Made by a program: the position numbers and the translations under genes. DNA of 64,000 nucleotides from Chitinophaga pinensis. GTDB lineage: Bacteria > Bacteroidota > Bacteroidia > Chitinophagales > Chitinophagaceae. The stretch is taken from NCBI GenBank assembly GCA_943367825.1, contig CALRKF020000002.1:54249-118248 (forward strand), read 5' to 3'. Each line of letters starts with the position of its first letter. The stretch's first letter is position 1. The notes under the pieces were generated by a model. It worked only from the letters and a program-made list of their open reading frames with translations, ran no database searches and was not told where the DNA came from. Positions 9,372 to 53,040 of the stretch are shown here, piece by piece.

Positions 9372-9452
9372 TAAATTTTTTTGTCCTGATACTTAATACC
9401 CAATTTGCCCGTTATCAGTTGAAACATTGAACAATTAAAGTATTCAGCAGAA

Positions 9453-10115
9453 ATGTTAACAGTAGAACTCATCAATCAAAGTATTCCTCAACTACAATTG
9501 CAGGACAGTGTCAAAAAAGCACTGCAGCTGATTAATGATTTTAAGGTTACCCATTTACCTGTTGTCGCGGATGACAAATTTCTTGGTCTTGTAAGCGAAG
9601 ATGATTTACTGGATGCTGAAGAAGTAAAATTGCCCATTCAAATATTACAGGATACCTTTTTAAAAGTAGCAGTGCAAGAAAATGAACATTTCTTAAAAGC
9701 GATTCATATTTGCAATGAATATAATACCAGCATTGTGCCAGTGATAGGAGAAGAAAGTGAATTAATGGGTGTCATTACCTCCCCCGACCTTTTGAAAATC
9801 ATTGGCGAATTCAATGGTGCCAACGAAATAGGAGGCTTGATTGTGTTGGAAATGGAAAGAAGTAAGTTCAGCATCAGCGAAATCAGCCGAATTACCGAAA
9901 GCAACGATGCCACCATCTTGCACCTTAATACAATCATTCACCCCGAAACCGGAATGCTTACAGTTACCCTGCATATCAATAAAAAGGAAATAGCCAGTAC
10001 AGTTGCTACTTTTGAACGGTATGATTATGACGTGATTTACTTTTTTGGAAACGAGCAATTTGAGAATGAAATTCACAGTAATTACAGGCATCTCATGAAT
10101 TATTTAGATATTTAA
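9453..10115 (+). CDS. CBS domain protein
   Basis: Two CBS repeats (HLPVV..KFLGLVSEDDL; IVPVI..LMGVIT..DLL) and a C-terminal ACT-like region (FERYDY). Confidence 0.88.
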   Translation: MLTVELINQSIPQLQLQDSVKKALQLINDFKVTHLPVVADDKFLGLVSEDDLLDAEEVKLPIQILQDTFLKVAVQENEHFLKAIHICNEYNTSIVPVIGEESELMGVITSPDLLKIIGEFNGANEIGGLIVLEMERSKFSISEISRITESNDATILHLNTIIHPETGMLTVTLHINKKEIASTVATFERYDYDVIYFFGNEQFENEIHSNYRHLMNYLDI

Positions 10116-10199
10116 CTACGAATTAATTTCAGCCTGTCTCTTTATGCTTTATATCAGTTATTTTTACAAGCGCTCCTCCTGAAATAAAGCGATGTTTTG

Positions 10200-11645
10200 A
10201 TGATGCATTTAAAGAAAATATTTTGCGGTTGCTGTTTACTGCTTTTTTGCATTACAGGTTTTACACAAATTACTTATAATACCGACAGTCTTACACTGAA
10301 TAGTCATCTGCATGTACGCAATATCATCATCAAAGGGAATAAAAACACAAAGACTTATCTGATTGAGCGCGAAATGCAACTAAAAAGAAATGACTCCATT
10401 CCTGCCATCAAACTAATTGATGCATTAAAACTGGCCAAACAACTTATTTATAATACCTCTTTATTTACCGAGGTAAAAGTGGATGTAAGTGTGGTAACAG
10501 CCTATGATATCGATTTAATAGTAGAAGTAAAAGAACGTTGGTATATTTTTCCAGTTCCCCAGTTTCAGTTAATTGATCGCAACCTAAATGACTGGATAAA
10601 AACCTTTAATGCCAGTCTGAGCAGGGTGAACTATGGATTAAAATTCGTTCACTATAATCTAAGTGGAAGAAGAGATCAATTGCGCATCTTCCTATTGAAT
10701 GGTTATAGCCGCAATTTCTCTTTCAGCTACACAGCCCCTTATAGCAATTCGGCTCTCACAGAGGGATTCACTATCGGTGCAGGCTATACGCAAAATAGAG
10801 AAATCTCCTACAAGACCGATTACAACAATAAGGTATTGTTTTATCCGGTAGATTCTATCCGCAAAGAAGTAGGCGATTTTGTAAGAAATGGATTTAATAT
10901 AAACGCTGCTTATTCCATTAGACGAGGATATTACAGAAAGCATAATTTTTACTTTAACTACAATTATTTAAAAGTATATGACTCAATAGTAACCAATAAA
11001 TTCAACCCCAATTACTTTAATGAACCTACGAATGCCAAAGGGTTTGTAGACTTATCTTACGCTTATCAATACCTTAATGTCAACAATGTGGCATACCCTT
11101 TAAAAGGAACGGCTTTTGGCTATGGCATATCTAAAAGGGGCCTTCGATTTACTGGCAGTATCAATTCACTTTCCATTAATGGTAATTTTAGCAAGTTTTA
11201 TGACCTTGGCAAATTTTGGTATAGTAGTTTTCAATTATCTGGCTCGGTAAAAGTTCCCTTTCGCCAAGCCTATATCAATCAACGAGGGCTTGGTTATGGT
11301 GATACCTATCTCCGGGGATTAGAATACTATGTGATTGATGGAATAGTAACGGGACTGGCAAAAACAACGCTAAAATATAAATTACTTCAGTTTAAAATCC
11401 CTTTCCCTTTTAAATCAAAATCGCATCCCTACATTCCTTTCACTTTTTTCGCTAAAACCTTTGGTGACTTAGGTTACTGTTTTAATAAAAATGAATTTAA
11501 GGCATCACTCAATAATAAATTATTATACTCAGGCGGAATTGGCATCGACTTACTTACATTATATGATGTAAATCTACGATTTGAATACAGTTTTAACCAA
11601 TTAGGAGAAAAGGGTTTATTTTTACATACACAGGGCGGGTTTTAA
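10200..11645 (+). CDS. Omp85 (BamA/TamA-like) outer-membrane protein with one POTRA domain
   Basis: Signal peptide, POTRA (IIIKGNKNTKTYLIEREM..LFTEV..VKERWY), Tyr/Gly-rich beta strands, LRGLEYYVIDG (VRGY-like) and terminal Phe. Start may be 10197, 10200 or 10203. Confidence 0.8.
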   Translation: MMHLKKIFCGCCLLLFCITGFTQITYNTDSLTLNSHLHVRNIIIKGNKNTKTYLIEREMQLKRNDSIPAIKLIDALKLAKQLIYNTSLFTEVKVDVSVVTAYDIDLIVEVKERWYIFPVPQFQLIDRNLNDWIKTFNASLSRVNYGLKFVHYNLSGRRDQLRIFLLNGYSRNFSFSYTAPYSNSALTEGFTIGAGYTQNREISYKTDYNNKVLFYPVDSIRKEVGDFVRNGFNINAAYSIRRGYYRKHNFYFNYNYLKVYDSIVTNKFNPNYFNEPTNAKGFVDLSYAYQYLNVNNVAYPLKGTAFGYGISKRGLRFTGSINSLSINGNFSKFYDLGKFWYSSFQLSGSVKVPFRQAYINQRGLGYGDTYLRGLEYYVIDGIVTGLAKTTLKYKLLQFKIPFPFKSKSHPYIPFTFFAKTFGDLGYCFNKNEFKASLNNKLLYSGGIGIDLLTLYDVNLRFEYSFNQLGEKGLFLHTQGGF

Positions 11646-11679
11646 AATCAAATATAATTAGCAGAAAAGGATATAGTTT

Positions 11680-12558
11680 ATGAAAATTGCAATCTATAGC
11701 AGGGGCATTGAAAACAATCAGCAAAACGACATGCAATTGTTATTAGAAGAACTGGCTGCGCATAAGATTGAACCTGTTTTTTATCAGGACTTTTTCAATC
11801 AATTCTATTCAGCCTTCAATATTACACAAAAATATTCCACCTTCAATTCCTATGAAGACTTGGATGAAAGCATTGACAGCATTATAAGTTTGGGTGGTGA
11901 TGGCACTTTACTAGACACGGTAACACTTGTAAGGGATAAAGGCACTCCTGTACTCGGTATTAATTATGGAAGGCTTGGATTTCTTGCCAGTATTGGTAAA
12001 GAAGAATTAAAAAATGCAATCACTGCTTTAGTCAACAGAACTTTTGTAACAGATAAAAGATCATTGATACACCTCGATGCCAATATGCCTTTATTCGGCG
12101 AAACGCCTTATGCCTTGAATGAATTTTCTTTACACAAAAAGGACTCCTCTCCTATGATAAAAATCCATACTTATCTGAATGGTGAGTTCTTGAATTCTTA
12201 TTGGGCAGACGGCCTCATAGTTGCTACCCCTACCGGTAGTACAGGTTATTCATTGAGTTGTCAGGGGCCAGTTATTTTTCCCGATAATGAGTGTTTTGTT
12301 ATTACACCTGTATCACCACACAATTTAAATATCCGGCCCATTGTAGTACCAGACAGTAATATCATCTCATTCGAAATTGAGGGCAGAACAGATGGATTTC
12401 TTTGTACCTTGGATAGTCGCAGAGAAATTGTAACCAAAGAAATACAGTTGGCCGTAAAAAAAGAAAACTTTGGAATCAACCTGATTCGCCTGAATGAAAA
12501 TAATTTTTTACAAACACTCCGTAACAAATTGAGTTGGGGATTGGACAAAAGAAATTAA
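11680..12558 (+). CDS. nadK: NAD kinase
   Basis: GGDGT, GINYGRLGFL, ALNE, DGLIVATPTGSTGYSLS and LSWGLDKRN. Confidence 0.96.
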   Translation: MKIAIYSRGIENNQQNDMQLLLEELAAHKIEPVFYQDFFNQFYSAFNITQKYSTFNSYEDLDESIDSIISLGGDGTLLDTVTLVRDKGTPVLGINYGRLGFLASIGKEELKNAITALVNRTFVTDKRSLIHLDANMPLFGETPYALNEFSLHKKDSSPMIKIHTYLNGEFLNSYWADGLIVATPTGSTGYSLSCQGPVIFPDNECFVITPVSPHNLNIRPIVVPDSNIISFEIEGRTDGFLCTLDSRREIVTKEIQLAVKKENFGINLIRLNENNFLQTLRNKLSWGLDKRN

Positions 12559-12594
12559 TATACCAGTATTTTATAGATTTAATCAATAGGCATC

Positions 12595-13578
12595 ATGCAT
12601 TTACGGGCCAAACATCTCAGATACATCTATTTTTTTTACTGGTTTTTACTGGCATATATCCTTGCAGCCCTTGCCTGGTGGTTTATTGCATTAAATACCC
12701 AGAATCACCAAATGGCCAATTACAAACTCAATGAATTGAATCCCACTAGTGCCCAATACGAAGGCTATGCTAATAAGATTAAGGATGCAGAAAAAAGAAA
12801 AACAGCTCAATACCTCGGCGAAGGATCCATCTTTTTTTTATTGATAATGGCTGGGGCCGTATTTATTTTTGGGGCCGTACGCAATCAACTCAAACAAAGC
12901 CATGAACAACAAAATTTCATGATGGCCATCACACATGAATTAAAAACGCCCATAGCAGTTGCCAAATTAAATTTGGAGACCCTCCAAATAAGAAAATTGG
13001 ATGAAGAGCAACAAAAAAAATTAATACAAAATACTTTACAAGAAGCTAACAGATTGAATGCACTTTGCAATAACCTGTTGCTTTCCTCACAAATGGAAGC
13101 AGGTGGATATAAACTTAATATGGAAGAAACTGATTTTAGTGAATTAGTCAGCCAATGCGCCCATGACTTCAATGTACGTTTTCCGCAAAGAATCATCCAT
13201 ACCGATATTCAAAAAGAAGTTTATGTAATGGGCGATTTGCTTTTATTACAAATGGCTGTGAATAATTTAATAGACAATGCACTGAAGTATTCTCCTAAAG
13301 AAATGCCCATAACAATTCAATTAACCGAATCCAACGGAAAACCCTCCTTGTTGGTTATGGATGAAGGAAAAGGAATTGCCGCGGAAGAAAAAAACAAGGT
13401 ATTTCATAAATTCTATCGAATAGGCAATGCCTCTACTAAGGCAGCCAAAGGGACAGGATTAGGCCTATATTTAACAAAGAAGATTGTATTGCAACACAAT
13501 GGAAATATCTATTTGACCGATAACCAACCAAAGGGAAGTATTTTTACTATTCAATTAAATACAGCCAACGCAACATGA
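12595..13578 (+). CDS. Two-component sensor histidine kinase
   Basis: Two TM helices, H-box ITHELKTP, N-box NLIDNALKYS and G-boxes DEGKGI / GTGLGL. Confidence 0.95.
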   Translation: MHLRAKHLRYIYFFYWFLLAYILAALAWWFIALNTQNHQMANYKLNELNPTSAQYEGYANKIKDAEKRKTAQYLGEGSIFFLLIMAGAVFIFGAVRNQLKQSHEQQNFMMAITHELKTPIAVAKLNLETLQIRKLDEEQQKKLIQNTLQEANRLNALCNNLLLSSQMEAGGYKLNMEETDFSELVSQCAHDFNVRFPQRIIHTDIQKEVYVMGDLLLLQMAVNNLIDNALKYSPKEMPITIQLTESNGKPSLLVMDEGKGIAAEEKNKVFHKFYRIGNASTKAAKGTGLGLYLTKKIVLQHNGNIYLTDNQPKGSIFTIQLNTANAT

Positions 13579-14276
13579 GCAAGAAATCCATTTTACTAGT
13601 AGAAGACGAGGAGAACCTACAGGAAGCCTTGAAGCTAAACCTTGAATTAGAAAATTATGAAGTTACCAGTGCCTATGATGGCGCAGAGGCTTTAAAAGCA
13701 GTTGTATCAGAGCACTTCGATTTAATTGTACTAGATGTAATGCTACCTGAGATAGATGGTATCACAGTATGCGAAACCATCAGGCTTAGCAATCCCGACA
13801 TACCCATTTTAATTTTAAGCGCTAAAAACAGTAGTGCAGACAGAATTCTTGGACTAAAAAAAGGAGCCGATGATTACCTGACCAAACCCTTTAACTTAGA
13901 GGAATTATTATTAAGGGTGAATAAATTGATTAGAAAAAGTGAGAAATTAGGCAGTAAAATTCCTGTGCCCGATGTGTATATTTTTGGTAAAAACAAAATA
14001 GATTTTAATGCTTCGGAAGGATTTGATAAAGATGGACATAAATTTTCTCTGACCAAGAAAGAATTAATGCTATTGAAATTATTAATTGAAAACAAGAACG
14101 AAACAGTAGCCCGCGAAAAAATATTGCATACTGTTTGGGGTTACAATGTTTATCCTACCACCAGAACAATTGATAATTTTGTATTAAGCTTCAGAAGATA
14201 TTTTGAAGCGGATAGTCGCAATCCAAAATATTTCCACAGTGTTAGAGGAGTGGGCTATAAATTTACCGATGCTTAA
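13575..14276 (+). CDS. OmpR/PhoB-family response regulator
   Basis: LLVEDE, LDVMLP, GADDYLTKPF and winged-helix RTIDNF..VRGVGY. Overlaps the kinase by 4 nt (ATGA). Confidence 0.96.
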   Translation: MSKKSILLVEDEENLQEALKLNLELENYEVTSAYDGAEALKAVVSEHFDLIVLDVMLPEIDGITVCETIRLSNPDIPILILSAKNSSADRILGLKKGADDYLTKPFNLEELLLRVNKLIRKSEKLGSKIPVPDVYIFGKNKIDFNASEGFDKDGHKFSLTKKELMLLKLLIENKNETVAREKILHTVWGYNVYPTTRTIDNFVLSFRRYFEADSRNPKYFHSVRGVGYKFTDA

Positions 14277-35570: not shown

Positions 35571-36992
35571 TTATAACATGGTTGTTGGGCAAACATATTC
35601 TGTCAATGAAAATGCATTGCTCGCCTTCATGGAATTGAATCCACCTCGTATATCTATCAATCTGTTATAGCCTCTTGCTTTTAATATAGAGGCAAAAATC
35701 ATTGACCGGTACCCGCCTGCGCAATAAACAAAATAGTTTTTGTTTTTATCTACCAGTTTCATGCTTTCGTTGATATAATCAAGTGGTGCATTTACCGCCC
35801 CCTCAACATGCTCGCTATCGAATTCACTTTTTTTACGAACATCTAATAGTTCAGCATTGGGCAATTTCTCCAGAATACTTGCCAATTCTGCTGCATCCAT
35901 CCTATAAATAGCATCGGTTTCTTTGCCGCTATCTTTCCAACTTGTAAATCCCCCTTTCAAAAAACCCAGGCAATAATCATATCCTACCCTTGCCAAGCGA
36001 CCAACCACTTCTTCTTCCTTTCCTGGTTCGGCTACTAATAATATTTGTGTTTTAACATCCGGTATCATGGCGCCTGCCCATGGTGCAAAACTGCCATTCA
36101 GTCCAATATTAATAGCGTTGGGTATAAATTCTCTTGCAAAAATATCAGCATCCCTTGTGTCGAGTATCAATGCGCCGGTTTCATTGGCAAGCGCTTCAAA
36201 AGCATCTGCAGTTAACTCTTTCAGTCCCCTTTCCATCACTTCTTCAATTGGATCATATCCTTTGATGTTTAATAAAACATTTAATGGAAAATAAGCAGGA
36301 GGTGGCGTTAACCCGTTCAATAAATTTTTTACAAACTGTTCCTTGCTTAGTTCAGGTTGCAATGCATAATTCACCGCTTTCTGATGTCCAAGACTATCAT
36401 AAGTTTCTTTGCTCATGTTTTTTCCACAGGCGCTTCCTGCGCCGTGAGCAGGATACACAATAACATCATCTGCCAGTGGCATTATTTTATTGTGTAAAGA
36501 TTCATATAGATGATTAGCCAACAAATCCTCTGTTAACTCGGCTTTTACTTTTTGCGCCAAATCAGGTCTCCCTACATCACCAATGAATAAGGTATCACCA
36601 CTGAATAAAGCGATGTCTTTCCCGGTTTCATCCTTTAGTAAATAACAACAGGACTCCATGGTATGACCTGGTGTATGTAAAACTGTAAAACTTATTTTTC
36701 CAACTTTGAATACTTCACCATCTGTGGCAACTTTTGCTTCAAAGTTAGGTACAGCTGTCGGCCCAAATACAATGGTAGCGCCAGTAGCCTTGGCCAAATC
36801 GAGATGCCCACTAACAAAATCGGCATGAAAATGAGTTTCAAAAACATACTTGATTTTTGAACCAGATTGGTTTTCTCTATCGAGATAAGGTTTTATTTCC
36901 CGAAGCGGGTCGATGACAACAGCTTCCCCATCACTTTCAATATAATATGCTCCCTGAGCCAAACAACCAGTATAGATTTGTTCTATTGTCAT
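35571..36992 (-). CDS. MBL-fold persulfide dioxygenase-like protein fused to two rhodanese domains (CstB/Blh-like)
   Basis: THFHADFVSGH, HTPGHT, GDTLF and PAHGAGSACG. First rhodanese lacks Cys; second has VYCAGGYRS. Confidence 0.88.
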   Translation of the reverse strand: MTIEQIYTGCLAQGAYYIESDGEAVVIDPLREIKPYLDRENQSGSKIKYVFETHFHADFVSGHLDLAKATGATIVFGPTAVPNFEAKVATDGEVFKVGKISFTVLHTPGHTMESCCYLLKDETGKDIALFSGDTLFIGDVGRPDLAQKVKAELTEDLLANHLYESLHNKIMPLADDVIVYPAHGAGSACGKNMSKETYDSLGHQKAVNYALQPELSKEQFVKNLLNGLTPPPAYFPLNVLLNIKGYDPIEEVMERGLKELTADAFEALANETGALILDTRDADIFAREFIPNAINIGLNGSFAPWAGAMIPDVKTQILLVAEPGKEEEVVGRLARVGYDYCLGFLKGGFTSWKDSGKETDAIYRMDAAELASILEKLPNAELLDVRKKSEFDSEHVEGAVNAPLDYINESMKLVDKNKNYFVYCAGGYRSMIFASILKARGYNRLIDIRGGFNSMKASNAFSLTEYVCPTTML

Positions 36993-37350: not shown

Positions 37351-37397
37351 ATACTGCAAATGCCGAACACTCATTAACATTCTAAATTTTAAACAAC

Positions 37398-37781
37398 ATG
37401 GCAACAAAAAAAGCAGCTCCTAAAAAAGCAGCAAAAAAAGCAGCTCCTAAAAAAGCAGTGAAGAAAGCGGCTCCTAAAAAAGCAGCAAAAAAAGCAGCTC
37501 CTAAAAAAGTAGCAAAAAAGAAATCTGCACGTAAACCTTCAGCAGCATTTATGAAACCACTTACTCCAAGTGCTGATTTAGCAGCTGTAGTAGGAAGCAA
37601 AGCATTACCACGTACAGAAGTGGTTAAAAAAATCTGGGTATATATTAAGGCGAACAAATTACAAGATGCAAAAAACAAACGCATGATTAATGCGGATGCA
37701 AAATTGAAACTTGTATTTGGTGGAAAAGGTCAGGTATCAATGTTTGATATGGCCAAATACCTTTCCAAGCACCTTAAATAA
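37398..37781 (+). CDS. SWIB/MDM2-domain protein with histone-H1-like Lys/Ala/Pro N-terminal tail
   Basis: (KKAAPKKAA)x4, then FMKPLTPSADLAAVVG..PRTEVVKKIWVYIK..LQD..NKRMINADAKL..F. Confidence 0.92.
   Translation: MATKKAAPKKAAKKAAPKKAVKKAAPKKAAKKAAPKKVAKKKSARKPSAAFMKPLTPSADLAAVVGSKALPRTEVVKKIWVYIKANKLQDAKNKRMINADAKLKLVFGGKGQVSMFDMAKYLSKHLK
37407..37514 (+). repeat. Four in-frame 27-nt tandem repeats encoding KKAAPKK(A/V)(A/V)
   Basis: Unit aaaaaagcagctcctaaaaaagcagca with few substitutions. Confidence 0.92.
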
Positions 37782-37794
37782 TTAAGGCATTACT

Positions 37795-37827
37795 AAAAAA
37801 AGGGATATCTACTGATGTCCCTTTTTT
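37795..37827 (+). terminator. Intrinsic terminator after the SWIB gene
   Basis: aaaaaaagggatatc-tact-gatgtccctttttt. Confidence 0.85.
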
Positions 37828-37953: not shown

Positions 37954-38055
37954 AATAGGTCACATCCTATTGGCGGGCATCTTTCTAACTTTCAGCGTTT
38001 TTCCACTGTTCCATTTTTGACAGTCTATCAAATTTAAATTTTGAAATAATTTACC

Positions 38056-39705
38056 ATGGCGAATACAGATATTACAAAACCGGTGGACCTTACACTTCAT
38101 GCAGAAGGAACTGGTCCGCTCCGTTCAACCCGGCCTCTTTATGTTGATTTCATGCCTCCCTGTAATAGTGCTTGTCCTGCAGGAGAAAACATTCAGGCAT
38201 GGCTTTCACATGCACAAGCAGGCAATTATTTTGAGGCTTTTCAAGCATTAGTGGAGGACAACCCCTTTCCAGGATTGATGGGTCGTGTTTGCGTGAAGCC
38301 CTGCGAAACAGGATGCAATCGCAATCATATTGACAATACTGTCAATATTCATGCAGTAGAAAGATATATAGGAGATGAGGCCATCAAAGAACAGTGGCCC
38401 ATTCGATATACAGCTAAACCCAGTGGAAAACGTGTATTGATTGTAGGTGCTGGTCCTGGTGGACTATCTGCCGCATATCAATTGGCCCGTATGGGTCATA
38501 CCGTTGAAATTTTTGAAGCAGCTGGTCATGCAGGTGGCTTACTTTGGTCTGGTGTTCCCGATTATCGCTTACCAAAAGAAATATTGGATGCAGAAGTGCA
38601 ACGCATCGTAAATATGGGTGTTAAAATTCGACTCAACTATAAAGTAAAAGATTTATTAGAGGAAAAAGAAGCTGGTAAGTTTGATGCGGTATACCTCGCC
38701 ATTGGAGCACAATTGATTCATTCTGAAAATTTTCAACAAGACAATTCAGTTTATATCCGTGATGCATTTAGTTTCTTCCATGAAGTAAAAACTAATTCAT
38801 CGCCTTATCTACGGAAAAAAGTAGTGGTATATGGTGGAGGCAAATTGGCTTTGTATCTATCCCGTATCATCAAACGCTTTGGTTCCGAAGTAGCCGTTTA
38901 TTTCCCAGGGGATAAAAAATTAATGCCTGCCTATGATTATGAAACAGAAGATGCATTGGCAGAAGGTGTAGATGTACAGTTATTAAAATGCATTAATAAA
39001 ATTGAAAATAAAAAAATTACCCTTGAAAATACCAAGGTTGAAAAAGGAAAAGTTGTAGGGCTTGGCACTTTCGAAACCATTGATGCGGATGTTTTGATTA
39101 TGGCGAATCGCCAGGAATCAGATAGTGGATTCTTAAGAAGTATCAATGGCATCAAAGTAAATGAAGATGGCACCGTGCAAATAGATATTCAACGGATGAC
39201 TGGAGAAGAAGGTGTTTTTGCCGGGGGAGATATGTTGCCAGGTGAAAACAGAAGCTCTACTATCGCTATTGGACAAGGAAAAAAAGCTGCCAAGTATATT
39301 CATGGTTTTCTGTTGCAAGAACCTTATCAAAAACCAGATAAACATCCCACTGCAGGTTACCGCAAATTGCATATGTGGTACGAAACAGAAGCACCACAGA
39401 AAACACAAGAAAAACTGGCCCCTGCTGAAGCAATAAAAAGTTTTGATGAAATTATCGCCGGCCTTCCAGAAGCTGCTGTTCGTTTTGAAGCTCAACGCTG
39501 CCTCAGTTGTGGTAATTGCTTCGAATGCGATGGTTGCTTTGGTGCATGCCCTGAAGATGCCATCATTAAATTAGGAAAAGGCAACCGCTATAAATTTAAT
39601 TATAATGCTTGCACTGGCTGTGCAGTTTGCTATGAACAATGCCCCTGCCATGCAATAGAAATGATTCCTGAACCTGTTAATTCAACTAACGATGTCGAAA
39701 AATAA
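38056..39705 (+). CDS. GltD/NfnB/DsrL-like Fe-S flavoprotein with C-terminal ferredoxin domain
   Basis: N-terminal PPCNSACP..NPFP..GRVC..PCETGCNR, FAD motif VGAGPGGLSAA, GVPDYRLP, FAGGD, and C-terminal RCLSCGNCFECDGCFGACP / CTGCAVCYEQCPC. Confidence 0.88.
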   Translation: MANTDITKPVDLTLHAEGTGPLRSTRPLYVDFMPPCNSACPAGENIQAWLSHAQAGNYFEAFQALVEDNPFPGLMGRVCVKPCETGCNRNHIDNTVNIHAVERYIGDEAIKEQWPIRYTAKPSGKRVLIVGAGPGGLSAAYQLARMGHTVEIFEAAGHAGGLLWSGVPDYRLPKEILDAEVQRIVNMGVKIRLNYKVKDLLEEKEAGKFDAVYLAIGAQLIHSENFQQDNSVYIRDAFSFFHEVKTNSSPYLRKKVVVYGGGKLALYLSRIIKRFGSEVAVYFPGDKKLMPAYDYETEDALAEGVDVQLLKCINKIENKKITLENTKVEKGKVVGLGTFETIDADVLIMANRQESDSGFLRSINGIKVNEDGTVQIDIQRMTGEEGVFAGGDMLPGENRSSTIAIGQGKKAAKYIHGFLLQEPYQKPDKHPTAGYRKLHMWYETEAPQKTQEKLAPAEAIKSFDEIIAGLPEAAVRFEAQRCLSCGNCFECDGCFGACPEDAIIKLGKGNRYKFNYNACTGCAVCYEQCPCHAIEMIPEPVNSTNDVEK

Positions 39706-42700
39706 AAAATTAATCGCTACGATCGATGGTAATGAAGCAGCTGCGTATGTGGCTTACCGTACCAATGAAGTATGTGCCATCTATCCTATTACTCCTTCTT
39801 CTACCATGGCCGAATTGGCTGATGAGTGGGCGGCTAAAGGATTAAAAAATATTTGGGGTGCTGTACCAGATATTATGGAAATGCAAAGTGAAGCAGGTGC
39901 TGCAGGAACCGTACATGGTGCCTTACAAACCGGCTCACTAACAACCACTTTTACTGCATCGCAGGGCTTAATGCTGATGCTACCCAATATGTATAAAATT
40001 GCAGGAGAATTGACAGCTGCAGTATTTCATGTTGCAGCGCGTTCATTGGCTGCACAAGGATTATCCATCTTTGGCGATCACCAGGATGTTATGGCAGCAC
40101 GTACTACCGGCTTTGCCATGTTAAGTTCTGTTAGCGTACAAGAAGCCCACGACTTTGCTTTAATTGCACAGGTAGCTTCTTTAAAATCAAGAATACCCAT
40201 CATCCATTTCTTTGATGGCTTTAGAACTTCACATGAAGTAAATAAATTGGAATTGCTAAGCGATGACCAAATCAGATCGATGATTCCTGATGAATTGGTT
40301 TTTGCTCATCGGAGTAGAGGATTGAATCCTGAACATCCCTTCATTAGAGGTACCGCTCAAAACCCAGATATTTATTTTCAGGGAAGAGAAACAGTCAATA
40401 CATTTTACAATAACATGCCTGGCATCGTTGAAGACGTGATGAAGGATTTTGCTGCGATGACTGGAAGAAAATATGAACTTTTCCAATATACAGGAGCACC
40501 GGATGCTGAAAGAGTCATTATCATTATGGGCTCTGGAGGAGAAACCGTTGATGAAACCATGCAAGCACTCAATGCTGCAGGTGAAAAAACTGGCTTGGTG
40601 CAAGTAAGATTGTATCGCCCATTCTCATTGGAACATTTGATAAAAGCCATTCCTGCTAGTGTAAAATCTATTGCTATATTAGATCGCACTAAAGAATCAG
40701 GTGCATCTGGAGAACCAATGTATCAAGACGTACTAGCTGCATTAGTTGAAGCTTTACAAAAAGGCTTAATAAAAAAATTGCCGAACCTGGTTGGTGGCAG
40801 ATATGGACTTTCATCTAAAGAGTTTACTCCAGCAATGGTTAAAGCTGTGTATGATGAACTTAAGAAAGAGCATCCAAAAAATGGTTTCACCATTGGTATC
40901 AATGATGATGTAACACATACTAGTCTTAGTTATGACCCTAGCTATACATTGGATGAATCAGCCTGGAGACAAGGATTATTCTTTGGTTTAGGTGCTGATG
41001 GTACCGTGGGTGCTAATAAAAATACTATTAAAATCATTGGAGAAAATACCGACCTGTTTGCACAAGGGTATTTTGTTTATGATTCAAAAAAATCAGGTGC
41101 CAGAACCGTATCACATTTACGCTTTGGACCAAATCCTATTCGTGCTCCATATTTGATTACTAAAGCAGATTTTATTGCCTGCCATCAATTCAATTTTATT
41201 GAAAAAGTAGAGATGCTGGATTTTGCTAAGGAAGGTGCTACTTTCCTTATCAATAGTCCTTATGATAAAGCAGAAGTATGGAGTAAACTAACAGGACAGG
41301 TACAAAAAAGCATCATTGATAAAAAATTAAAGCTGTATGTGATTGATGCCACTGCTGTTGCCCGCGATACTGGTATGACAGGCCGCATCAACACCATCAT
41401 GCAAACCTGCTATTTTGCATTATCAGGTGTATTACCAAGAGAAGATGCCATCAAGCAAATTAAAAAAGCCATTGAAAAATCCTACTCTAGAAAAGGTCAG
41501 AAAGTAATTGATCAAAATTTTAAAGCGGTAGATGCCACTTTGGCTAATCTTTACGAAGTAGACTATCCTAAAACAGTATCTGCTGCAGTGAATGTATTGC
41601 AAATAGTTTCTGATAAAGCGCCCGATTTTGTAAAGGATATTACTGCCGTAATGATGGCTGGTCATGGTGATGATTTGCCAGTAAGTAAAATGCCTATCGA
41701 TGGCACTTATCCAAGTGGCACCACACAATGGGAAAAAAGAAATATATCAGACCTGGTACCTTTATGGGAACCTGATTTATGTATTCAATGTGGTAACTGT
41801 GCCTATGTTTGCCCACACAGTGTTATCCGTGCAAAATTTTATCACAAAGACCATTTGGAAAAAGCATCTGATGGATTTAAATCAGCTCCGATAAATGCAA
41901 GAGGTTTTCCTGAAACCAATTATACCTTGCAAGTATATGTAGAAGATTGTACAGGTTGCAATCTCTGCGTAGAGGTTTGTCCTTCTTCAGATCCGTCTAA
42001 CCGTAGCCGTAAGGCAATTAATTTGGGTGAAAAAGAACCCGTACTTGAAACAGAAAAGAAAAATATTGAATTTTTTGAAAATATTCCATGGAATGACCGC
42101 TCTAAAATTGATTTCTCCACTGTACATGGAGCACAGTTCCTCGAACCATTATTTGAATTCTCTGGCGCTTGTGCTGGTTGTGGCGAAACACCTTATTTGA
42201 AATTGTTATCACAATTATTCGGTGAGCGTTTATTAGTTGCCAATGCAACAGGTTGTTCGTCCATATATGGTGGTAACCTGCCCACAACTCCTTGGGCTGT
42301 CAACAAAGACGGACGTGGTCCGGCTTGGTCTAATTCCTTGTTTGAAGACAATGCCGAATTTGGTTTGGGTATGCGCATTACTGCTGACAAGCAATTAGGC
42401 TCTGCCAAACAATATTTACTCGAGCTTAAAAATGAATTAGGCGAAGCTCAGGTAGATGAAATACTCAATGCCAAACAAGTGCTGGAATCTGAATTAGCAA
42501 TACAGCATTTGAGGGTACAAAAACTAAAAGAACAATTGCGTACCATGAGTTCTTCTCCAGCACAGCATCTATTATCTGTAGCCGACCAATTGGTACGCCG
42601 CAGTGTATGGCTGATTGGTGGCGATGGTTGGGCTTATGATATTGGCTATGGTGGTTTGGATCATGCATTGGCAAGTGGAAGAAATATCAATATCCTGGTA

Positions 42701-43267
42701 CTCGATACCGAAGTGTATTCTAATACAGGTGGACAGTCATCCAAATCAACGCCAACAGCGGCCACTGCTAAATTCGCAGCAGGTGGTAAATCTGGAGGTA
42801 AAAAGGATTTGGCTATGCAAGCCATCTCTTACGGAAATGTATACGTTGCAAGAGTAGCATTTGGTGCTAATCCACAACAAACGCTTTTAGCAATGAGAGA
42901 AGCAGAAGCTTATGATGGACCATCACTGATACTTGCGTATAGCCATTGTATTGCACACGGCTATGATTTAAAAGATGGACTGAGCCAACAAAACAAAGCA
43001 GTTGCCAGTGGACATTGGCCTTTATTAAGATACAATCCTGTATTGAGGAAGAAAAATCAAAATCCTTTTGTACTGGATTCAACAAGGCCTACAATGGCAC
43101 TGAGGGATTATGCTTATAATGAGTTACGATATAAAGTACTCACTATGACTAATCCGGAAGTAGCTGAAAACTTAATGCAACATGCACAAGAATTGGTAAA
43201 CCTGAAATGGAAGAATTATGAGGAGCTGGCTACCAAAAAAGCAAGTGATTTTGTACCTATAGGTTAA
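39692..43267 (+). CDS. nifJ: Pyruvate:ferredoxin/flavodoxin oxidoreductase (single-chain PFOR)
   Basis: YPITPSS, MQSEAGAAG, GLGADGTVG, two CxxCxxCxxxCP motifs, FSGACAGCGETPY, GGDGWAYDIG and CIAHG. Overlaps the upstream gene by 14 nt. Confidence 0.97.
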   Translation: MSKNKKLIATIDGNEAAAYVAYRTNEVCAIYPITPSSTMAELADEWAAKGLKNIWGAVPDIMEMQSEAGAAGTVHGALQTGSLTTTFTASQGLMLMLPNMYKIAGELTAAVFHVAARSLAAQGLSIFGDHQDVMAARTTGFAMLSSVSVQEAHDFALIAQVASLKSRIPIIHFFDGFRTSHEVNKLELLSDDQIRSMIPDELVFAHRSRGLNPEHPFIRGTAQNPDIYFQGRETVNTFYNNMPGIVEDVMKDFAAMTGRKYELFQYTGAPDAERVIIIMGSGGETVDETMQALNAAGEKTGLVQVRLYRPFSLEHLIKAIPASVKSIAILDRTKESGASGEPMYQDVLAALVEALQKGLIKKLPNLVGGRYGLSSKEFTPAMVKAVYDELKKEHPKNGFTIGINDDVTHTSLSYDPSYTLDESAWRQGLFFGLGADGTVGANKNTIKIIGENTDLFAQGYFVYDSKKSGARTVSHLRFGPNPIRAPYLITKADFIACHQFNFIEKVEMLDFAKEGATFLINSPYDKAEVWSKLTGQVQKSIIDKKLKLYVIDATAVARDTGMTGRINTIMQTCYFALSGVLPREDAIKQIKKAIEKSYSRKGQKVIDQNFKAVDATLANLYEVDYPKTVSAAVNVLQIVSDKAPDFVKDITAVMMAGHGDDLPVSKMPIDGTYPSGTTQWEKRNISDLVPLWEPDLCIQCGNCAYVCPHSVIRAKFYHKDHLEKASDGFKSAPINARGFPETNYTLQVYVEDCTGCNLCVEVCPSSDPSNRSRKAINLGEKEPVLETEKKNIEFFENIPWNDRSKIDFSTVHGAQFLEPLFEFSGACAGCGETPYLKLLSQLFGERLLVANATGCSSIYGGNLPTTPWAVNKDGRGPAWSNSLFEDNAEFGLGMRITADKQLGSAKQYLLELKNELGEAQVDEILNAKQVLESELAIQHLRVQKLKEQLRTMSSSPAQHLLSVADQLVRRSVWLIGGDGWAYDIGYGGLDHALASGRNINILVLDTEVYSNTGGQSSKSTPTAATAKFAAGGKSGGKKDLAMQAISYGNVYVARVAFGANPQQTLLAMREAEAYDGPSLILAYSHCIAHGYDLKDGLSQQNKAVASGHWPLLRYNPVLRKKNQNPFVLDSTRPTMALRDYAYNELRYKVLTMTNPEVAENLMQHAQELVNLKWKNYEELATKKASDFVPIG

Positions 43268-43334
43268 TGTATAACATAATAAAGCAGGAGCCGCTTCGGT
43301 GGTGCCGGATTACTAAAAAATAAAAATTAAGAAA

Positions 43335-44324
43335 ATGAAAATGCAAGCAAAATACATGGGGTTAAATTTAAATTCCCCCATTATTGTATCCGCCTGTACA
43401 CTATCTGAACAATCAGATAATATTGTTAGAATGGAAGACAATGGTGCAGGTGCGGTGGTATTATTTTCTTTGTTTGAAGAACAAATAAGAAATGAAGAGG
43501 CAAAATTCAAATCAGTAATGTCGGAAACTTCTTATGCTTTTGCAGAAGCCTTGGATTATTTCCCCAATCTGGATGAGTTTAATATGGGCACTGATGACTA
43601 TTTGGAACATATCAGAAAAGCCAAGGAAAGGGTTAATATTCCCATCATTGGAAGTTTAAACGGAATAACCAACGAAGGTTGGATTGATTATTCTAAAATG
43701 ATGGAACAAGCAGGTGCCGATGCCATTGAAATTAATATCTTTTTCATTCCTGGTGATATTACCATGTCAACATCTGAAGTTGAGCACCGCTACTTGAATA
43801 TCATATCTAATATCAAGCAAACAGTAAAAATTCCAGTGGCAGTAAAGCTCAATCCTTATTTCAGTGCAATGGGTAATATGTCGTTGCGTATGAAAAATGC
43901 TGGCGCCGATGGTTTGGTATTCTTTAACAGGTTTTACCAACCCGATTTCGATATCAACGAACTTGTTTTGAAAACCGATTTACACTATAGTGAATCCAGT
44001 GAAATCCGACTCCCATTGCTTTGGATTGCCTTATTATATAATAAAGTACAATTGTCGCTTGCAGCTACTACTGGTGTACAAAGTGCAGTGGAAGTAATCA
44101 AATATATTCTCGCAGGAGCAGATGTGGTGATGACAGCTTCTTCTTTATACAAGAATGGCATTCCATATTTGAAAACCATGAATAAAGAATTGCAGGACTG
44201 GATGTATATGATGGGTTTCGATAATCTGGAAGCATTTAGAGGAAGTATGAGTCAGCAAAATATTTCCGACCCTACTGCCTATGAGCGGGCAAACTATATT
44301 AAGATACTTGAAAAGGCCAAGTAA
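43335..44324 (+). CDS. Dihydroorotate-dehydrogenase-like FMN TIM-barrel protein lacking the catalytic Cys
   Basis: PIIGSLNG, IEINIFFIP in place of ELNxSCPN, PVAVKL, GADGLVFFNRFYQPD, ATTGV and AGADVV. Confidence 0.88.
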   Translation: MKMQAKYMGLNLNSPIIVSACTLSEQSDNIVRMEDNGAGAVVLFSLFEEQIRNEEAKFKSVMSETSYAFAEALDYFPNLDEFNMGTDDYLEHIRKAKERVNIPIIGSLNGITNEGWIDYSKMMEQAGADAIEINIFFIPGDITMSTSEVEHRYLNIISNIKQTVKIPVAVKLNPYFSAMGNMSLRMKNAGADGLVFFNRFYQPDFDINELVLKTDLHYSESSEIRLPLLWIALLYNKVQLSLAATTGVQSAVEVIKYILAGADVVMTASSLYKNGIPYLKTMNKELQDWMYMMGFDNLEAFRGSMSQQNISDPTAYERANYIKILEKAK

Positions 44325-44355: not shown

Positions 44356-44390
44356 AAAAAGGGGATATACTTTTCGTATATCCCTTTCTG
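44356..44390. terminator. Bidirectional intrinsic terminator ending the PFOR operon
   Basis: aaaaag-gggatatac-ttttc-gtatatccc-tttctg; T tracts on both strands. Confidence 0.85.
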
Positions 44391-49972: not shown

Positions 49973-51514
49973 TTATAATGGAATATTCCCATGTTTTTTT
50001 CTGGGCCTTTTGGCGACCTTGTTCTCCAACATGGCATATGCCTTAATTAATTTTGTACGGGTATCTTTCGGCTCTATAACTTCATCAATAAAACCTCTTT
50101 CAGCTGCGAGGTATGGCGTAGCAAATTTTTCGGCATAAGCCGCTTCTTTTTCTAATAGTTTTTTAGCAGGGTCTTCTGCTTCCGCTATTTCTTTTTTGAA
50201 AATGATTTCGCTGGCGCCCTTGGCACCCATGACGGCAATTTCGGCACTGGGCCAGGCATAATTCATATCGGCACCAATATGTTTTGAATTCATCACATCG
50301 TAGGCACCACCATAAGCCTTTCGTGTTATAACCGTTACTCTCGGCACTGTTGCTTCACTCAATGCATATAATAATTTAGCTCCGTTGGTAATAATACCAT
50401 TCCACTCCTGATCTGTTCCTGGTAAAAATCCAGGCACATCCACCAGCACTAATAATGGTATATTAAAGCAATCGCAGAACCGTGTGAATCTTGCTCCTTT
50501 CTTAGAACTATCAATATCTAACACCCCAGCCAGACAAAGTGGTTGGTTGGCTACAATTCCAATACTTCTACCGGCTAACCTGGCAAAACCTACCACTATG
50601 TTTTCTGCATAATTTTTGTGTACCTCAAAAAAACTATCCGCATCACATATACCATTAATTACAGTGCGCATATCGTAAGGCTGATGTGTATTGGCAGGAA
50701 TAATTGTCTCTAAGTTTGGTCTGGTTTCATCTACCAATGTATAAGGTAATTTTAAAACTATGTCCTCACAATTCTGGGGTAGATAACTTAATAACTTTTT
50801 AATCTGCAGAATACAATCCATGTCATTGGATGCAGTAAGATGAGTTACTCCCGACTTCACCGAATGGGTAGACGCACCACCCAATTCCTCAGCACTCACT
50901 TCCTCATTGGTGACCGTTTTTACAACATTAGGTCCGGTAACAAACATATAACTAGTATGTTCCACCATGATGGTAAAATCAGTGATGGCTGGAGAATAAA
51001 CAGCGCCACCTGCACAGGGGCCCATGATGGCAGATATTTGAGGGATAACACCAGAAGACAACACATTGCGGTAAAAAATATCAGCATATCCTCCGAGTGA
51101 ACGAACACCTTCCTGAATACGTGCGCCACCAGAATCATTGAGTCCAACAAGCGGTGCACCAGTTTTCATGGCAAGGTCCATAATCTTACAAATTTTTTCT
51201 GCATGCGTTTCCGATAAAGCGCCACCAAAAACGGTGAAGTCTTGCGCAAATACATATAACAATCTGCCGTTGACAGTACCATATCCTGTTATTACACCAT
51301 CTCCATAATATTGCTGATCTTCCATTCCAAAATCCTTGGTACGGTGCAAGACCAATGCGCCAATTTCTTCAAAACTACCTTCATCCATTAACAGGTATAT
51401 GCGTTCTCTTGCCGTAAGTTTTCCTTTCTTATGCTGTGTACTATTTCTTGCTTCTCCACCACCCTGCTTTCCTACCTCCAATTTTTCTCTGAGTATTTCA
51501 ATTCTTGATTTCAT
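49973..51514 (-). CDS. pccB: Acyl-CoA (propionyl-CoA-type) carboxylase carboxyltransferase beta subunit
   Basis: [44 protein letters not shown] and KKHGNIPL. Confidence 0.9.
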
Positions 51515-51567
51515 GTAATGCTATTTTTCATTCTTTAATAAGTGATGTCAATGGACCTCAGATAATA

Positions 51568-53040
51568 TTATGCTAGTCTTCTTTTCCAACTGGTTGTTTT
51601 ATGCTCAACTGGGCGGGCAATCGCCAATTGCTCCTTCCAATATTTCAAGGCTACTAAGGATGCAATCGCAGCATGCGCCCTTTGCTTTTCTACCAATGCC
51701 TCAGGAGTGTAATAATTCTTTACAAAATGTGTATCAAATTTTCCTGACACAAAAGCATCGTGCTCAAATACAAATGTTCCAAAGGTCAGTGTAGTAGCTA
51801 CCCCTTCTATTCTGTAAAGGCGAATCGCTTCCTTCATTTTTTGAATGGCTTCGTTTCGGTCTTTCCCATGAGTGGCCAATTTGGCAATCATTGGATCATA
51901 ATAAATTGGAATAGCCATTCCTTCTTCATAACCATCATCCACCCTTATTCCTTCGCCAATAGGCTTTTCGTATTTAGTAAGTGTTCCTATGGAAGGAAGA
52001 AAATTATTTAATGGATCTTCTGCATATACTCTCAATTCCAAGGCGTGCCCGTTAATTTGTAAATCATCTTGTGAAAAACTGAGTTTTTCGCCGCGTGCAA
52101 TTTTTATTTGTTCTGCTACCAGATCAATCCCAGTAATCATCTCCGTTACTGGATGTTCAACCTGCAAGCGGGTGTTCATTTCGAGGAAATAAAAATTCAA
52201 TTCCGCATCCATTAAAAATTCTACTGTACCGGTGCTGGTATAGTTGCAGGATTTTGCTACCATAACGGCTGCTTCTCCCATTTTTTTTCTTAACGCAGGA
52301 GTAAGTATCGAAGAGGGGGATTCTTCAACAACCTTCTGGTGCCTTCGCTGAATGCTGCATTCTCTTTCAAACAAGTGTACAACATTTCCATACTGATCGG
52401 CCAATACCTGTATTTCCACATGACGGGGCGAACTCACATACTTTTCAATGAAGACTGAACCATCTCCAAAAGAAGATTTTGCTTCACTAACGGCCCTTTG
52501 CATTTGTTCTTCTAGATCAGCTTCTTTTTCTACAATTCTCATTCCCTTGCCTCCTCCACCTGCAGAGGCTTTGATAAGTATCGGGTATCCTACTTGTGCA
52601 GCAATTTTTTTTGCTAGCACTACATCCTCAATGGCTTCATCAATGCCTGGCACCATGGGAATATTATATTTTTTCACGCACTCTTTTGCTGCCAATTTAG
52701 AACCCATGATACGCATGGCAGCAGCATCCGGTCCTATGAATACAATACCTGCTTCCTTTACAGCCTGGGCAAATGTTGCGTTTTCACTTAAAAATCCATA
52801 ACCAGGATGAATGCCATCTACCTGTAATGATTTTGCCAAGGCTATTATTTTTTCTCCATTCAGATAGGATTGTGCAGAGGGAGCAGGTCCCAAACAAACT
52901 GCTTCATCTGCATAGAGTACATGCGGACTTTTTCTATCTGCTTCAGAAAAAACTGCGACCGATTGAATGCCCATCGCACGAATGGTTCTCATTATTCTTA
53001 AGGCAATTTCGCCCCGGTTGGCTACTAATATTTTTTGCAT
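51568..53040 (-). CDS. accC: Biotin carboxylase subunit
   Basis: ANRGEIA, HPGYGFLSEN, KASAGGGGKGMR, RECSIQRRHQK, EMNTRLQVEH and YDPMIAK. Confidence 0.93.
   Translation of the reverse strand: MQKILVANRGEIALRIMRTIRAMGIQSVAVFSEADRKSPHVLYADEAVCLGPAPSAQSYLNGEKIIALAKSLQVDGIHPGYGFLSENATFAQAVKEAGIVFIGPDAAAMRIMGSKLAAKECVKKYNIPMVPGIDEAIEDVVLAKKIAAQVGYPILIKASAGGGGKGMRIVEKEADLEEQMQRAVSEAKSSFGDGSVFIEKYVSSPRHVEIQVLADQYGNVVHLFERECSIQRRHQKVVEESPSSILTPALRKKMGEAAVMVAKSCNYTSTGTVEFLMDAELNFYFLEMNTRLQVEHPVTEMITGIDLVAEQIKIARGEKLSFSQDDLQINGHALELRVYAEDPLNNFLPSIGTLTKYEKPIGEGIRVDDGYEEGMAIPIYYDPMIAKLATHGKDRNEAIQKMKEAIRLYRIEGVATTLTFGTFVFEHDAFVSGKFDTHFVKNYYTPEALVEKQRAHAAIASLVALKYWKEQLAIARPVEHKTTSWKRRLA

Follow-up and report, generated by a model that had tools for sequence, protein, structure and literature searches.

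A Chitinophagaceae pyruvate:ferredoxin oxidoreductase operon with two putative dedicated flavoprotein partners

A 64-kb stretch of a Chitinophagaceae genome, referred to below as the window and numbered by its own positions throughout, carries at 38056-44324 three co-oriented + strand genes in which pyruvate:ferredoxin oxidoreductase (PFOR) is flanked by an Fe-S flavoprotein (g1) and by a protein resembling dihydroorotate dehydrogenase (DHODH; g3). The reading favored here, at a probability of roughly 0.5 and on the strength of sequence comparison, is that PFOR is encoded here with two distinct partners, each dedicated to accepting its electrons: PFOR and g1 would act as a pyruvate:NAD(P)+ oxidoreductase, and g3 would be an FMN-containing partner. 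An initial annotation of this DNA had described g1 and g3 as together rebuilding a dihydropyrimidine dehydrogenase (DPD) that is re-partitioned around PFOR; this is not the organizing principle of the operon, which is better understood as PFOR with two added partners, A and B. The triad is not unreported, having been described in Propionibacterium (PMC7650540, 2020), and the window operon is therefore a further case of a known, uncharacterized operon. New here are the modular distribution of the partners, a link between g1 and 2-oxoglutarate:NADP+ oxidoreductase (KGOR), the family-wide loss of catalytic residues in g3, and an altered nucleotide-binding motif in the g1 proteins of Chitinophagaceae.

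The operon and its boundaries comprise the following features:

37796..37827 (+), terminator hairpin of the upstream SWIB-domain gene, with a T run after it, found by terminator scan; -18.5 kcal/mol, z -5.7, 0/200 shuffles as stable; upstream limit of the transcription unit
38010..38055 (+), possible promoter and short leader, with TTTG at 38016-38019 and TAAATTTTG at 38035-38043, resembling Bacteroidota -33/-7 elements; read by eye, weak evidence
38056..39705 (+), g1, 549-aa Fe-S flavoprotein of the NF009410/PRK12771 family
39692..43267 (+), PFOR, 1191 aa, single-chain pyruvate:ferredoxin (flavodoxin) oxidoreductase with its own 2x[4Fe-4S] ferredoxin-like domain (residues ~690-765) and a thiamine pyrophosphate (TPP) domain
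43268..43334 (+), PFOR-g3 spacer, 67 nt, no terminator
43335..44324 (+), g3, 329-aa DHODH-like TIM barrel of the NF005741/PRK07565 family
44359..44386 (+), terminator hairpin after g3, with a GGGGATATAC...GTATATCCCC-like stem and then TTTCTGTT; -19.4 kcal/mol, z -4.2, 0/200 shuffles as stable; 3′ boundary of the operon

That g1, PFOR, and g3 form a single operon, as the initial annotation had proposed, follows from the 14-nt overlap of the g1 and PFOR open reading frames (ORFs), the lack of significant structure in the PFOR-g3 spacer (fold z -0.95), and the strong hairpins with T runs at both ends; the hairpin after g3 could terminate transcription in both directions. A sigma-70 promoter scan upstream of g1 gave a result no better than shuffled sequence, and the elements at 38010-38055 were compared by eye with the Bacteroides promoter consensus. 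RNA support for co-transcription was sought in public runs, among which the sole run containing the window sequence was a DNA run from a lake-water metagenome. The best match to the window is a contig of a metagenome-assembled genome, at 94-98% protein identity.

Judged by its sequence, the central gene encodes an intact and canonical PFOR. It scores 1776 bits against TIGR02176 (cut-off, 911), contains the Pfam domains POR_N, PFOR_II, POR, EKR, Fer4 (2x[4Fe-4S]), and TPP_enzyme_C, and can be aligned over its whole length with two solved PFOR structures, 6CIN and 1B0P (from Moorella and Desulfovibrio). The C-terminal extension of the Desulfovibrio africanus enzyme, presumably protective in that protein, is absent.

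The first gene encodes a member of the curated NCBIfam family NF009410, which bears the non-committal name “NAD(P)-binding protein” (624.8 bits over residues 5-539; cut-off, 516). Pfam matches place Fer4_20 at residues 34-113, Pyr_redox_2 at 126-408, and Fer4_21/Fer4 at 487-536. A FAD-type Rossmann motif, GAGPGG, lies at residues 131-136 and is followed by a second Rossmann fold, GGGKLA...YFPGD. The C-terminal domain contains two CxxCxxCxxxCP motifs, C488-C498 and C519-C529, and residues 487-539 match the PFOR delta subunit 9bt4_G, in keeping with a general resemblance of this domain to the delta subunit of multi-subunit 2-oxoacid oxidoreductases. These Pfam and NCBIfam matches, with those for g3 below, bear out the earlier description of the operon as a GltD-like protein with a C-terminal ferredoxin domain, an intact PFOR, and a DHODH-like barrel.

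The Cys-rich C-terminus of g1, originally taken as a whole to be an addition to a GltD-like core, is of mixed nature. Eight of its Cys residues are, by motif, a true ferredoxin domain, so that this part of the description stands. By contrast, the “EAxRCLSCG” part (residues 478-486, with RCLSCG at 481-486; window 39496-39516 for residues 481-487) belongs to the GltD-type clusters by permutation: it follows the flavin domains in g1, whereas it is N-terminal in NfnB, GltD, and DPD. Because HMMER aligns the RCLSCG stretch of g1 to the N-terminus of Pyrococcus furiosus NfnB, 2 of the 11 C-terminal Cys most likely complete the GltD-type clusters through circular permutation. The GltD/NfnB-type ligand set would then consist of C36, C40, C79, C83, and C87 together with C482 and C485. 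An equivalent circular permutation is found in StnC (8oh5), 9bov, and 9n5u. The cluster Cys columns are invariant in an alignment of orthologues that are only 45-50% identical, and all ligands for four [4Fe-4S] clusters, together with the FAD site and the second Rossmann fold, are retained across these orthologues.

The core of g1 is homologous to NfnB (5jca_L, E 5e-51) and to the NfnB-like module of the bifurcating enzyme StnC (8oh5). Bifurcating NfnB can be separated from non-bifurcating ferredoxin:NADP+ oxidoreductase (Fnor) by an nfnA gene upstream, an extended N-terminus with RCLxC, and Arg333 (PMC12221290). Directly upstream of g1 there is no nfnA; a SWIB-domain gene lies there, behind its terminator. 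The protein also lacks the extended N-terminus with RCLxC, and the residue at the position of Arg333 (P. furiosus numbering, near the FAD) is Tyr, although Arg201 of NfnB is kept as R171. These differences place g1 on the non-bifurcating Fnor side, and its assignment as a canonical NfnB was rejected.

The second Rossmann fold (window 38818-38940, residues ~255-295) reads GGGKLALY...YF[PA]GD in all Chitinophagaceae, whereas actinobacterial and most proteobacterial g1 orthologues keep the NADPH-type GGGNTAMD...YRRT; a g1 encoded on a Phenylobacterium plasmid reads FVSD at the NADPH-motif position. Since the Arg pair of YRRT is replaced, NAD+ may be the acceptor in Chitinophagaceae, and the altered motif probably represents a shift toward NADH.

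A biochemical precedent for the coupling of such a protein to a 2-oxoacid oxidoreductase is provided by KGOR. The purified Azoarcus evansii enzyme is reportedly composed of three subunits and is said to reduce NADP+ directly. A protein of Aromatoleum aromaticum EbN1 has the same end-to-end architecture as g1 (E 2e-50, 27% identity) and precedes 2-oxoacid:ferredoxin oxidoreductase (OFOR) alpha and beta genes, so that g1 shares with this KGOR-type flavoprotein both its architecture and its position beside OFOR-type genes. Like g1, the KGOR-type flavoprotein (~550-600 aa) combines a C-terminal 2x[4Fe-4S] domain with Fer4_20, FAD and NAD(P) folds, and the permuted RCLxC motif. In PMC10134865 the A. 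evansii flavoprotein subunit is listed among GltD/NfnB homologues.

A survey starting from g1 in metagenome contigs yielded 74 informative loci, and in every one of them (74/74) g1 adjoins a 2-oxoacid:ferredoxin oxidoreductase. In 66/74 the PFOR start lies ≤700 nt downstream of g1. The remaining 8/74 (L360 5641-9614, L374, L380, L390, L394, L398, L401, and L402) have a two-subunit OFOR (alpha, beta) immediately upstream of g1 with no delta/ferredoxin subunit, and here the ferredoxin domain of g1 may replace the missing delta subunit. Among the 35 g1-PFOR loci with enough downstream sequence, g3 is present in 22 and absent from 13.

The third gene encodes a member of the NCBIfam family NF005741, likewise curated and cautiously named (“dihydroorotate dehydrogenase-like protein”; 450.2 bits over residues 1-328; cut-off, 303), with a Pfam DHO_dh match of 57 bits. 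Its AlphaFold2 model, built from a diverse alignment, is confident (pLDDT 90, pTM 0.88) except in loop 67-83. The best Foldseek match of this model is domain IV of pig DPD, followed by class 1B and 1A DHODHs (1ep1, 1dor), at TM ~0.68 and 15-20% identity. The TIM-barrel fold and the presumed FMN/substrate-site residues K171, N134, and N198 are kept, K171 being invariant and N134 nearly invariant in the family, and flavin binding is predicted. The catalytic Cys (class 1) or Ser (class 2) of the “ELNxSCPN” loop, by contrast, is missing: the loop reads EINIFFIPG, with F136-F137 at its catalytic position. The protein also has “SLFEEQ,” a motif specific to the family. Among 137 representatives of the g3 family this position is aromatic or variable, with the consensus E-L-N-[ILV]-[YF]-x, in which neither Cys nor Ser is conserved; the family also lacks the PN insertion, the site of a further substrate Asn. 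Because the catalytic residue has been lost family-wide, these proteins should be unable to carry out the dihydroorotate or dihydrouracil acid/base step in the known way. Nor does g3 correspond to PreA of the PreT/PreA pair: it has neither the Cys-rich domain nor the catalytic Cys, and PFOR lies between g1 and g3.

The g3 family comprises 907 clusters at 50% identity (E≤1e-30), nearly all of them stand-alone proteins of ~330 aa. A search of the 150 best family representatives for fusions to g1, PFOR, or a ferredoxin domain turned up nothing but spurious extensions. An N-terminal domain for membrane or quinone binding is absent from g3.

Gene neighborhoods of g3 were surveyed in four scans of species-representative genomes (320 loci); the g1 counts below cover only loci that reach far enough upstream:

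Chitinophagaceae g3 clade: PFOR directly upstream of g3 in 74/75; g1 directly upstream of PFOR in 56/56
Actinomycetota g3 clade (Propionibacteriales, Solirubrobacterales, Thermoleophilia, Acidimicrobiia, others): PFOR upstream in 78/79; g1 upstream in 66/66
Largest g3 clade (cyanobacteria, Acidobacteriota, Verrucomicrobiota, Chloroflexota, Ignavibacteriota, Cytophagia, others): PFOR upstream in 70/76; g1 upstream in 0/51
Anaerobe g3 clade (Spirochaetales, Bacteroidales, Chlorobiota, Desulfuromonadales): PFOR upstream in 0/73; g1 not applicable

The order g1-PFOR-g3, kept without exception in the Chitinophagaceae and Actinomycetota loci that could be scored, is thus not a matter of chance, and this synteny across phyla agrees with the earlier proposal that both flanking genes are linked to PFOR. 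Across the three PFOR-adjacent clades, which span at least eight phyla, PFOR lies next to g3 in 222/230 loci. As to the possibility, raised at the outset, that g1 or g3 usually occurs without PFOR, g1 was never found away from a 2-oxoacid oxidoreductase, whereas g3 is PFOR-linked in three clades but never in the fourth. In a neighbor-joining tree, the PFORs linked to g1 form one clade and those of the PFOR-g3 pair clade another. A third conserved neighbor of the PFOR-g3 pair was looked for in these loci and none was found; an ADP-forming acetyl-CoA synthetase-like gene occurs near the pair in a few only (L104 7-1536 and seven other pair-clade loci), which fits an ATP-yielding route from pyruvate through acetyl-CoA to acetate. 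Two actinobacterial triads (L212 and L218, ~9150-13850, minus strand) have a second cluster a few kb downstream, consisting of a multi-subunit OFOR alpha-like gene and a GltD-like gene of 29-30% identity.

Anaerobe-clade g3 genes showed no conserved neighborhood; their neighbors are housekeeping genes, save for a GltD-type gene directly upstream in 4/80 loci. At one Bacteroidales locus (L300 5587-8999) the g3 relative follows nfnA-like and nfnB-like genes, and at a deltaproteobacterial locus (L286 4979-9092) it follows a gene for a 920-aa StnC-like Fe-S flavoprotein and lies beside a BcrAD/BadFG-type ATPase gene. Barrels of the g3 type may thus serve several GltD-type electron-transfer enzymes.

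In PLSDB, three proteins and no others are at least 47% identical to g1. All three adjoin PFOR, and the one from Aeromonas has no g3. The complete triad is found on the conjugative plasmid NC_011143 of Phenylobacterium zucineum HLK1 (L321 7986-14275), beside an alcohol dehydrogenase gene and with a type II glyceraldehyde-3-phosphate dehydrogenase gene downstream, and on a plasmid of Methylovirgula sp. HY1 (L323 7944-14270), between insertion sequence elements and a toxin-antitoxin pair. Its presence on two alphaproteobacterial plasmids indicates that the triad moves horizontally as a unit.

Since each flanking gene occurs with PFOR and without the other in many lineages, g1 and g3 are considered to be independent modules. 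The family models confirm that their combined domain set equals the DPD inventory, but the further claim that they rebuild DPD as an obligate unit does not survive the survey: PFOR and g3 occur without g1 in 51/51 loci of the largest g3 clade, and g1 and PFOR occur without g3 in Aeromonas and in the 13/35 metagenome loci noted above. The NfnB-like Fnor precedent, the constant adjacency of g1 to an OFOR, and the architecture shared with the KGOR-type protein together suggest that PFOR and g1 most likely constitute a pyruvate:NAD(P)+ oxidoreductase, which would do for pyruvate what the A. evansii enzyme does for 2-oxoglutarate. The C-terminal 2x[4Fe-4S] domain of g1 would dock on PFOR in place of soluble ferredoxin. 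Electrons would then pass from the PFOR clusters to this domain, on to the two GltD-type [4Fe-4S] clusters, and to the FAD, which would collect two electrons before reducing NAD(P)+. With lower confidence than for the role of g1, g3 is suggested to be an FMN TIM barrel that is a partner primarily of PFOR rather than of g1. It probably receives its electrons from a [4Fe-4S] cluster, taking them singly from the ferredoxin domain of either PFOR or g1, as domain IV of DPD takes them from domain V, and would pass the electron pair to a further acceptor.

Several points weigh against this assignment. The identity between g1 and the EbN1 protein is low, and the GGGKLALY...YFPGD motif could reflect weakened nucleotide binding rather than a switch to NADH. 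The analysis shows gene content, motifs, fold, and conserved neighborhoods, whereas a physical complex of g1, PFOR, and g3, their cofactor content, and their activities are predictions. The internal cluster chain of PFOR is already complete, and the enzyme's usual acceptors, free ferredoxin and flavodoxin, may have their genes elsewhere in the genome. Were g1 sufficient to bring electrons to NAD(P)+, g3 would have no evident place in the triad; conversely, g1 would seem superfluous if cyanobacteria manage with g3 alone. Finally, the Bacteroidales and Spirochaetales relatives, none of which adjoins PFOR, show that the function of the g3 family is not intrinsically tied to PFOR by gene order.

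Other arrangements of the same components can be envisaged. Tentatively, the DHODH-like barrel may be an undescribed, multi-phylum PFOR subunit that provides a flavin exit to a non-ferredoxin acceptor (NAD(P)+, a quinone, or O2) and that, with g1, would make up a new flavin-based bifurcating or confurcating pyruvate oxidoreductase; this is possible, although the balance of probability lies against it. Unlikely, too, is a single flavin-based bifurcating or confurcating complex in which the FAD of g1 bifurcates, PFOR forms the low-potential branch, and the FMN of g3 forms the high-potential one (NADH, quinol, or other). This is the arrangement hypothesized for Propionibacterium, an Nfn in which PFOR stands in for ferredoxin and a PyrD-like barrel for the PyrK-like NfnA. 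It is consistent with the homology of g1 to NfnB and the StnC module and with the retained R171, with the co-transcription and identical regulation of the triad (PMC7650540), and with the g3 relatives that follow nfnA/nfnB-like or StnC-like genes, and it would exploit the 180 mV that separate pyruvate from NAD(P)+ and would otherwise be wasted. Yet g1 has none of the three features that mark bifurcating NfnB, the parts of the supposed complex occur separately, and g3 has no domain for membrane or quinone binding.

That g1 and g3 are a true split DPD-like reductase, acting at the FMN of g3 on a pyrimidine-like or small unsaturated substrate with PFOR and/or NAD(P)H as donor, is decidedly unlikely. 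The DPD domain inventory, the structural match to DPD domain IV, and the retention of N134 and N198, the two Asn that line the pyrimidine site, argue for it, as do the existence of a ferredoxin-dependent DPD, PydAc, and the GltD-type genes that precede a few anaerobe-clade g3 relatives. The loss of the catalytic Cys/Ser and of the PN insertion, a PreA (NF006183) score of 71 bits against a cut-off of 335, the pairing of g3 with PFOR but not g1 in most phyla, and the lack of pyrimidine-degradation genes near the operon argue against it. Very unlikely, in turn, is a role for g3 as a protective or overflow valve in bacteria exposed to oxygen, whose FMN would either pass electrons from the PFOR clusters to an oxidant such as O2 or hold those clusters in the reduced state, enabling PFOR to withstand oxic or microoxic conditions, while g1 served as the productive exit. 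Groups that are mostly aerobic or exposed to oxygen (cyanobacteria, Acidobacteriota, Verrucomicrobiota, Chitinophagaceae, Actinomycetota) do make up the PFOR-adjacent g3 clades, and anaerobes (Bacteroidales, Spirochaetales, Desulfuromonadales) the non-adjacent one, lifestyles being inferred from names in both cases; the window PFOR has no protective extension of the D. africanus type, and the Synechocystis nifJ operon is induced on a microoxic shift. The argument is purely correlative, however, and no oxidase motif supports it. Least probable by far is that g1 and g3 are the ordinary glutamate synthase small subunit and PyrD, placed beside PFOR by chance. Automatic annotation in several sources does name proteins of these types “glutamate synthase small chain” and “dihydroorotate dehydrogenase (fumarate),” respectively, but g1 falls below the cut-off for every GltD, NfnB-like, AegA, and YgfK equivalog (170 bits against 448 for TIGR01317 and 177 against 483 for TIGR01318, both GltD models) and g3 below those for all PyrD and PreA equivalogs (91 against 270 for TIGR01037; 88 against 269 for PRK07259), whereas both pass NF009410 and NF005741, respectively. 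In addition, the window has no gltB, g3 has no catalytic base, and the gene order is conserved across phyla and on plasmids. Ordinary PyrD and GltD roles were accordingly rejected, and the initial annotation was right to set pyrimidine and glutamate metabolism aside.

No functional link to the operon is evident for the neighboring genes, which encode the SWIB-domain protein, a metallo-beta-lactamase-rhodanese fusion, UppS, a fasciclin-domain protein, and a saccharopine dehydrogenase-like protein. The earlier statement that the window contains neither gltB nor a stand-alone ferredoxin was upheld: no ORF in the 64 kb is long enough for gltB, and the only CxxCxxCxxxCP motifs are two in g1 and two in PFOR. 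About a quarter of the related Chitinophagaceae loci (L042 10237-10458 and ~19 others) have a 73-aa ferredoxin-like gene (CIGCGVC...CP) two genes after g3, which is absent from the window. No DsrL model was among the listed family matches of g1, and no dsrAB-like neighbors were seen; an architectural resemblance of g1 to DsrL is presumed. In the 127-aa product of the SWIB-domain gene (37398-37781, +), a SWIB/MDM2 domain is joined to a histone H1-like repeat tail rich in Lys and Ala (KKAAPKKAA...), and a 100-aa antisense ORF at 37382-37684 is an artifact of that repeat. The fusion gene (35571-36992, -) encodes a 473-aa protein with a metallo-beta-lactamase fold and two rhodanese domains that resembles persulfide dioxygenase-sulfurtransferase. 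Acyl-CoA carboxylase genes (carboxyltransferase and biotin carboxylase) lie at 49973-53040 (-), ~5.6 kb downstream and outside the operon.

Carbon metabolism under anaerobic and microoxic conditions depends centrally on PFOR, which is also a metabolic-engineering target; its electrons are conventionally shown going to free ferredoxin or flavodoxin. Two PFOR sub-clades, present across hundreds of genomes (Actinomycetota, cyanobacteria including Synechocystis, Acidobacteriota, Verrucomicrobiota, Chitinophagaceae, and plasmids), are accompanied by dedicated flavoprotein partners. That these genes go together was known before, and there is good biochemical precedent for the g1 half; should PFOR and g1 indeed act directly as a pyruvate:NAD(P)+ oxidoreductase, metabolic models would have to be revised for these bacteria, most of which are aerobic or facultative. 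The g3 family is large and routinely mis-annotated as dihydroorotate dehydrogenase (fumarate). In line with the initial annotation, the literature searched assigned no biochemical function to the triad, sll0744, or PFOR-linked DHODH-like proteins; only PMC7650540 and PMC11368403 were relevant. The function of this widespread PFOR partner is testable in the tractable Synechocystis and Propionibacterium.

Among systems of known function, DPD (the pig enzyme and E. coli PreT/PreA) resembles g1 and g3 taken together in its GltD-type clusters, FAD, NAD(P) fold, 2x[4Fe-4S] domain, and FMN barrel. The ferredoxin domain is carried on the barrel in DPD but on g1 here, however, and g3 differs in lacking the catalytic Cys and in occurring independently of g1, as does g1 of g3. 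Pyruvate:NADP+ oxidoreductase of Euglena and Cryptosporidium couples PFOR directly to an NADP+-reducing flavoprotein. In that enzyme PFOR is fused to a cytochrome P450 reductase-type FMN/FAD module of different folds, without an Fe-S flavoprotein, and it is an analogy rather than a relative of the triad. That a barrel of the DPD type can be fed by ferredoxin is established by PydAc (PMC7332683). Stand-alone NfnB-like proteins of the Cac_0764 type, which are proven ferredoxin:NADP+ oxidoreductases (PMC12221290), are like g1 in lacking both nfnA and Arg333; unlike NfnAB and these proteins, g1 has an added ferredoxin domain, its cluster motif is permuted, and its gene always lies beside that of a 2-oxoacid oxidoreductase. 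KGOR shares with the operon a flavoprotein of the kind described above but is a two-subunit 2-oxoglutarate enzyme in its oxidoreductase part, not a single-chain PFOR, and the EbN1 cluster has no DHODH-like gene.

Close counterparts are found in Synechocystis and Propionibacterium. In Synechocystis sp. PCC 6803, nifJ and sll0744 belong to one transcription unit (sll0741-sll0743-sll0744) that is induced on a shift to microoxic conditions (PMC11368403). As in the window, PFOR is followed there by a gene annotated “dihydroorotate dehydrogenase (fumarate),” and the surveyed cyanobacterial loci have the same PFOR-g3 pair; unlike in the window, g1 is absent and a small hypothetical gene lies between PFOR and sll0744. 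In Propionibacterium and Acidipropionibacterium the three genes are transcribed and regulated together, growth is crippled when this PFOR is knocked out, and a confurcating complex that would turn ferredoxin and quinol into NAD(P)H was proposed as a hypothesis only (McCubbin et al. 2020, PMC7650540). That triad consists of the same three families in the same order as in the window. It belongs to another phylum, the actinobacterial orthologues being 47% (g1), 62% (PFOR), and 44% (g3) identical to the window proteins, and its g1 keeps the YRRT motif that has been lost from g1 in Chitinophagaceae.

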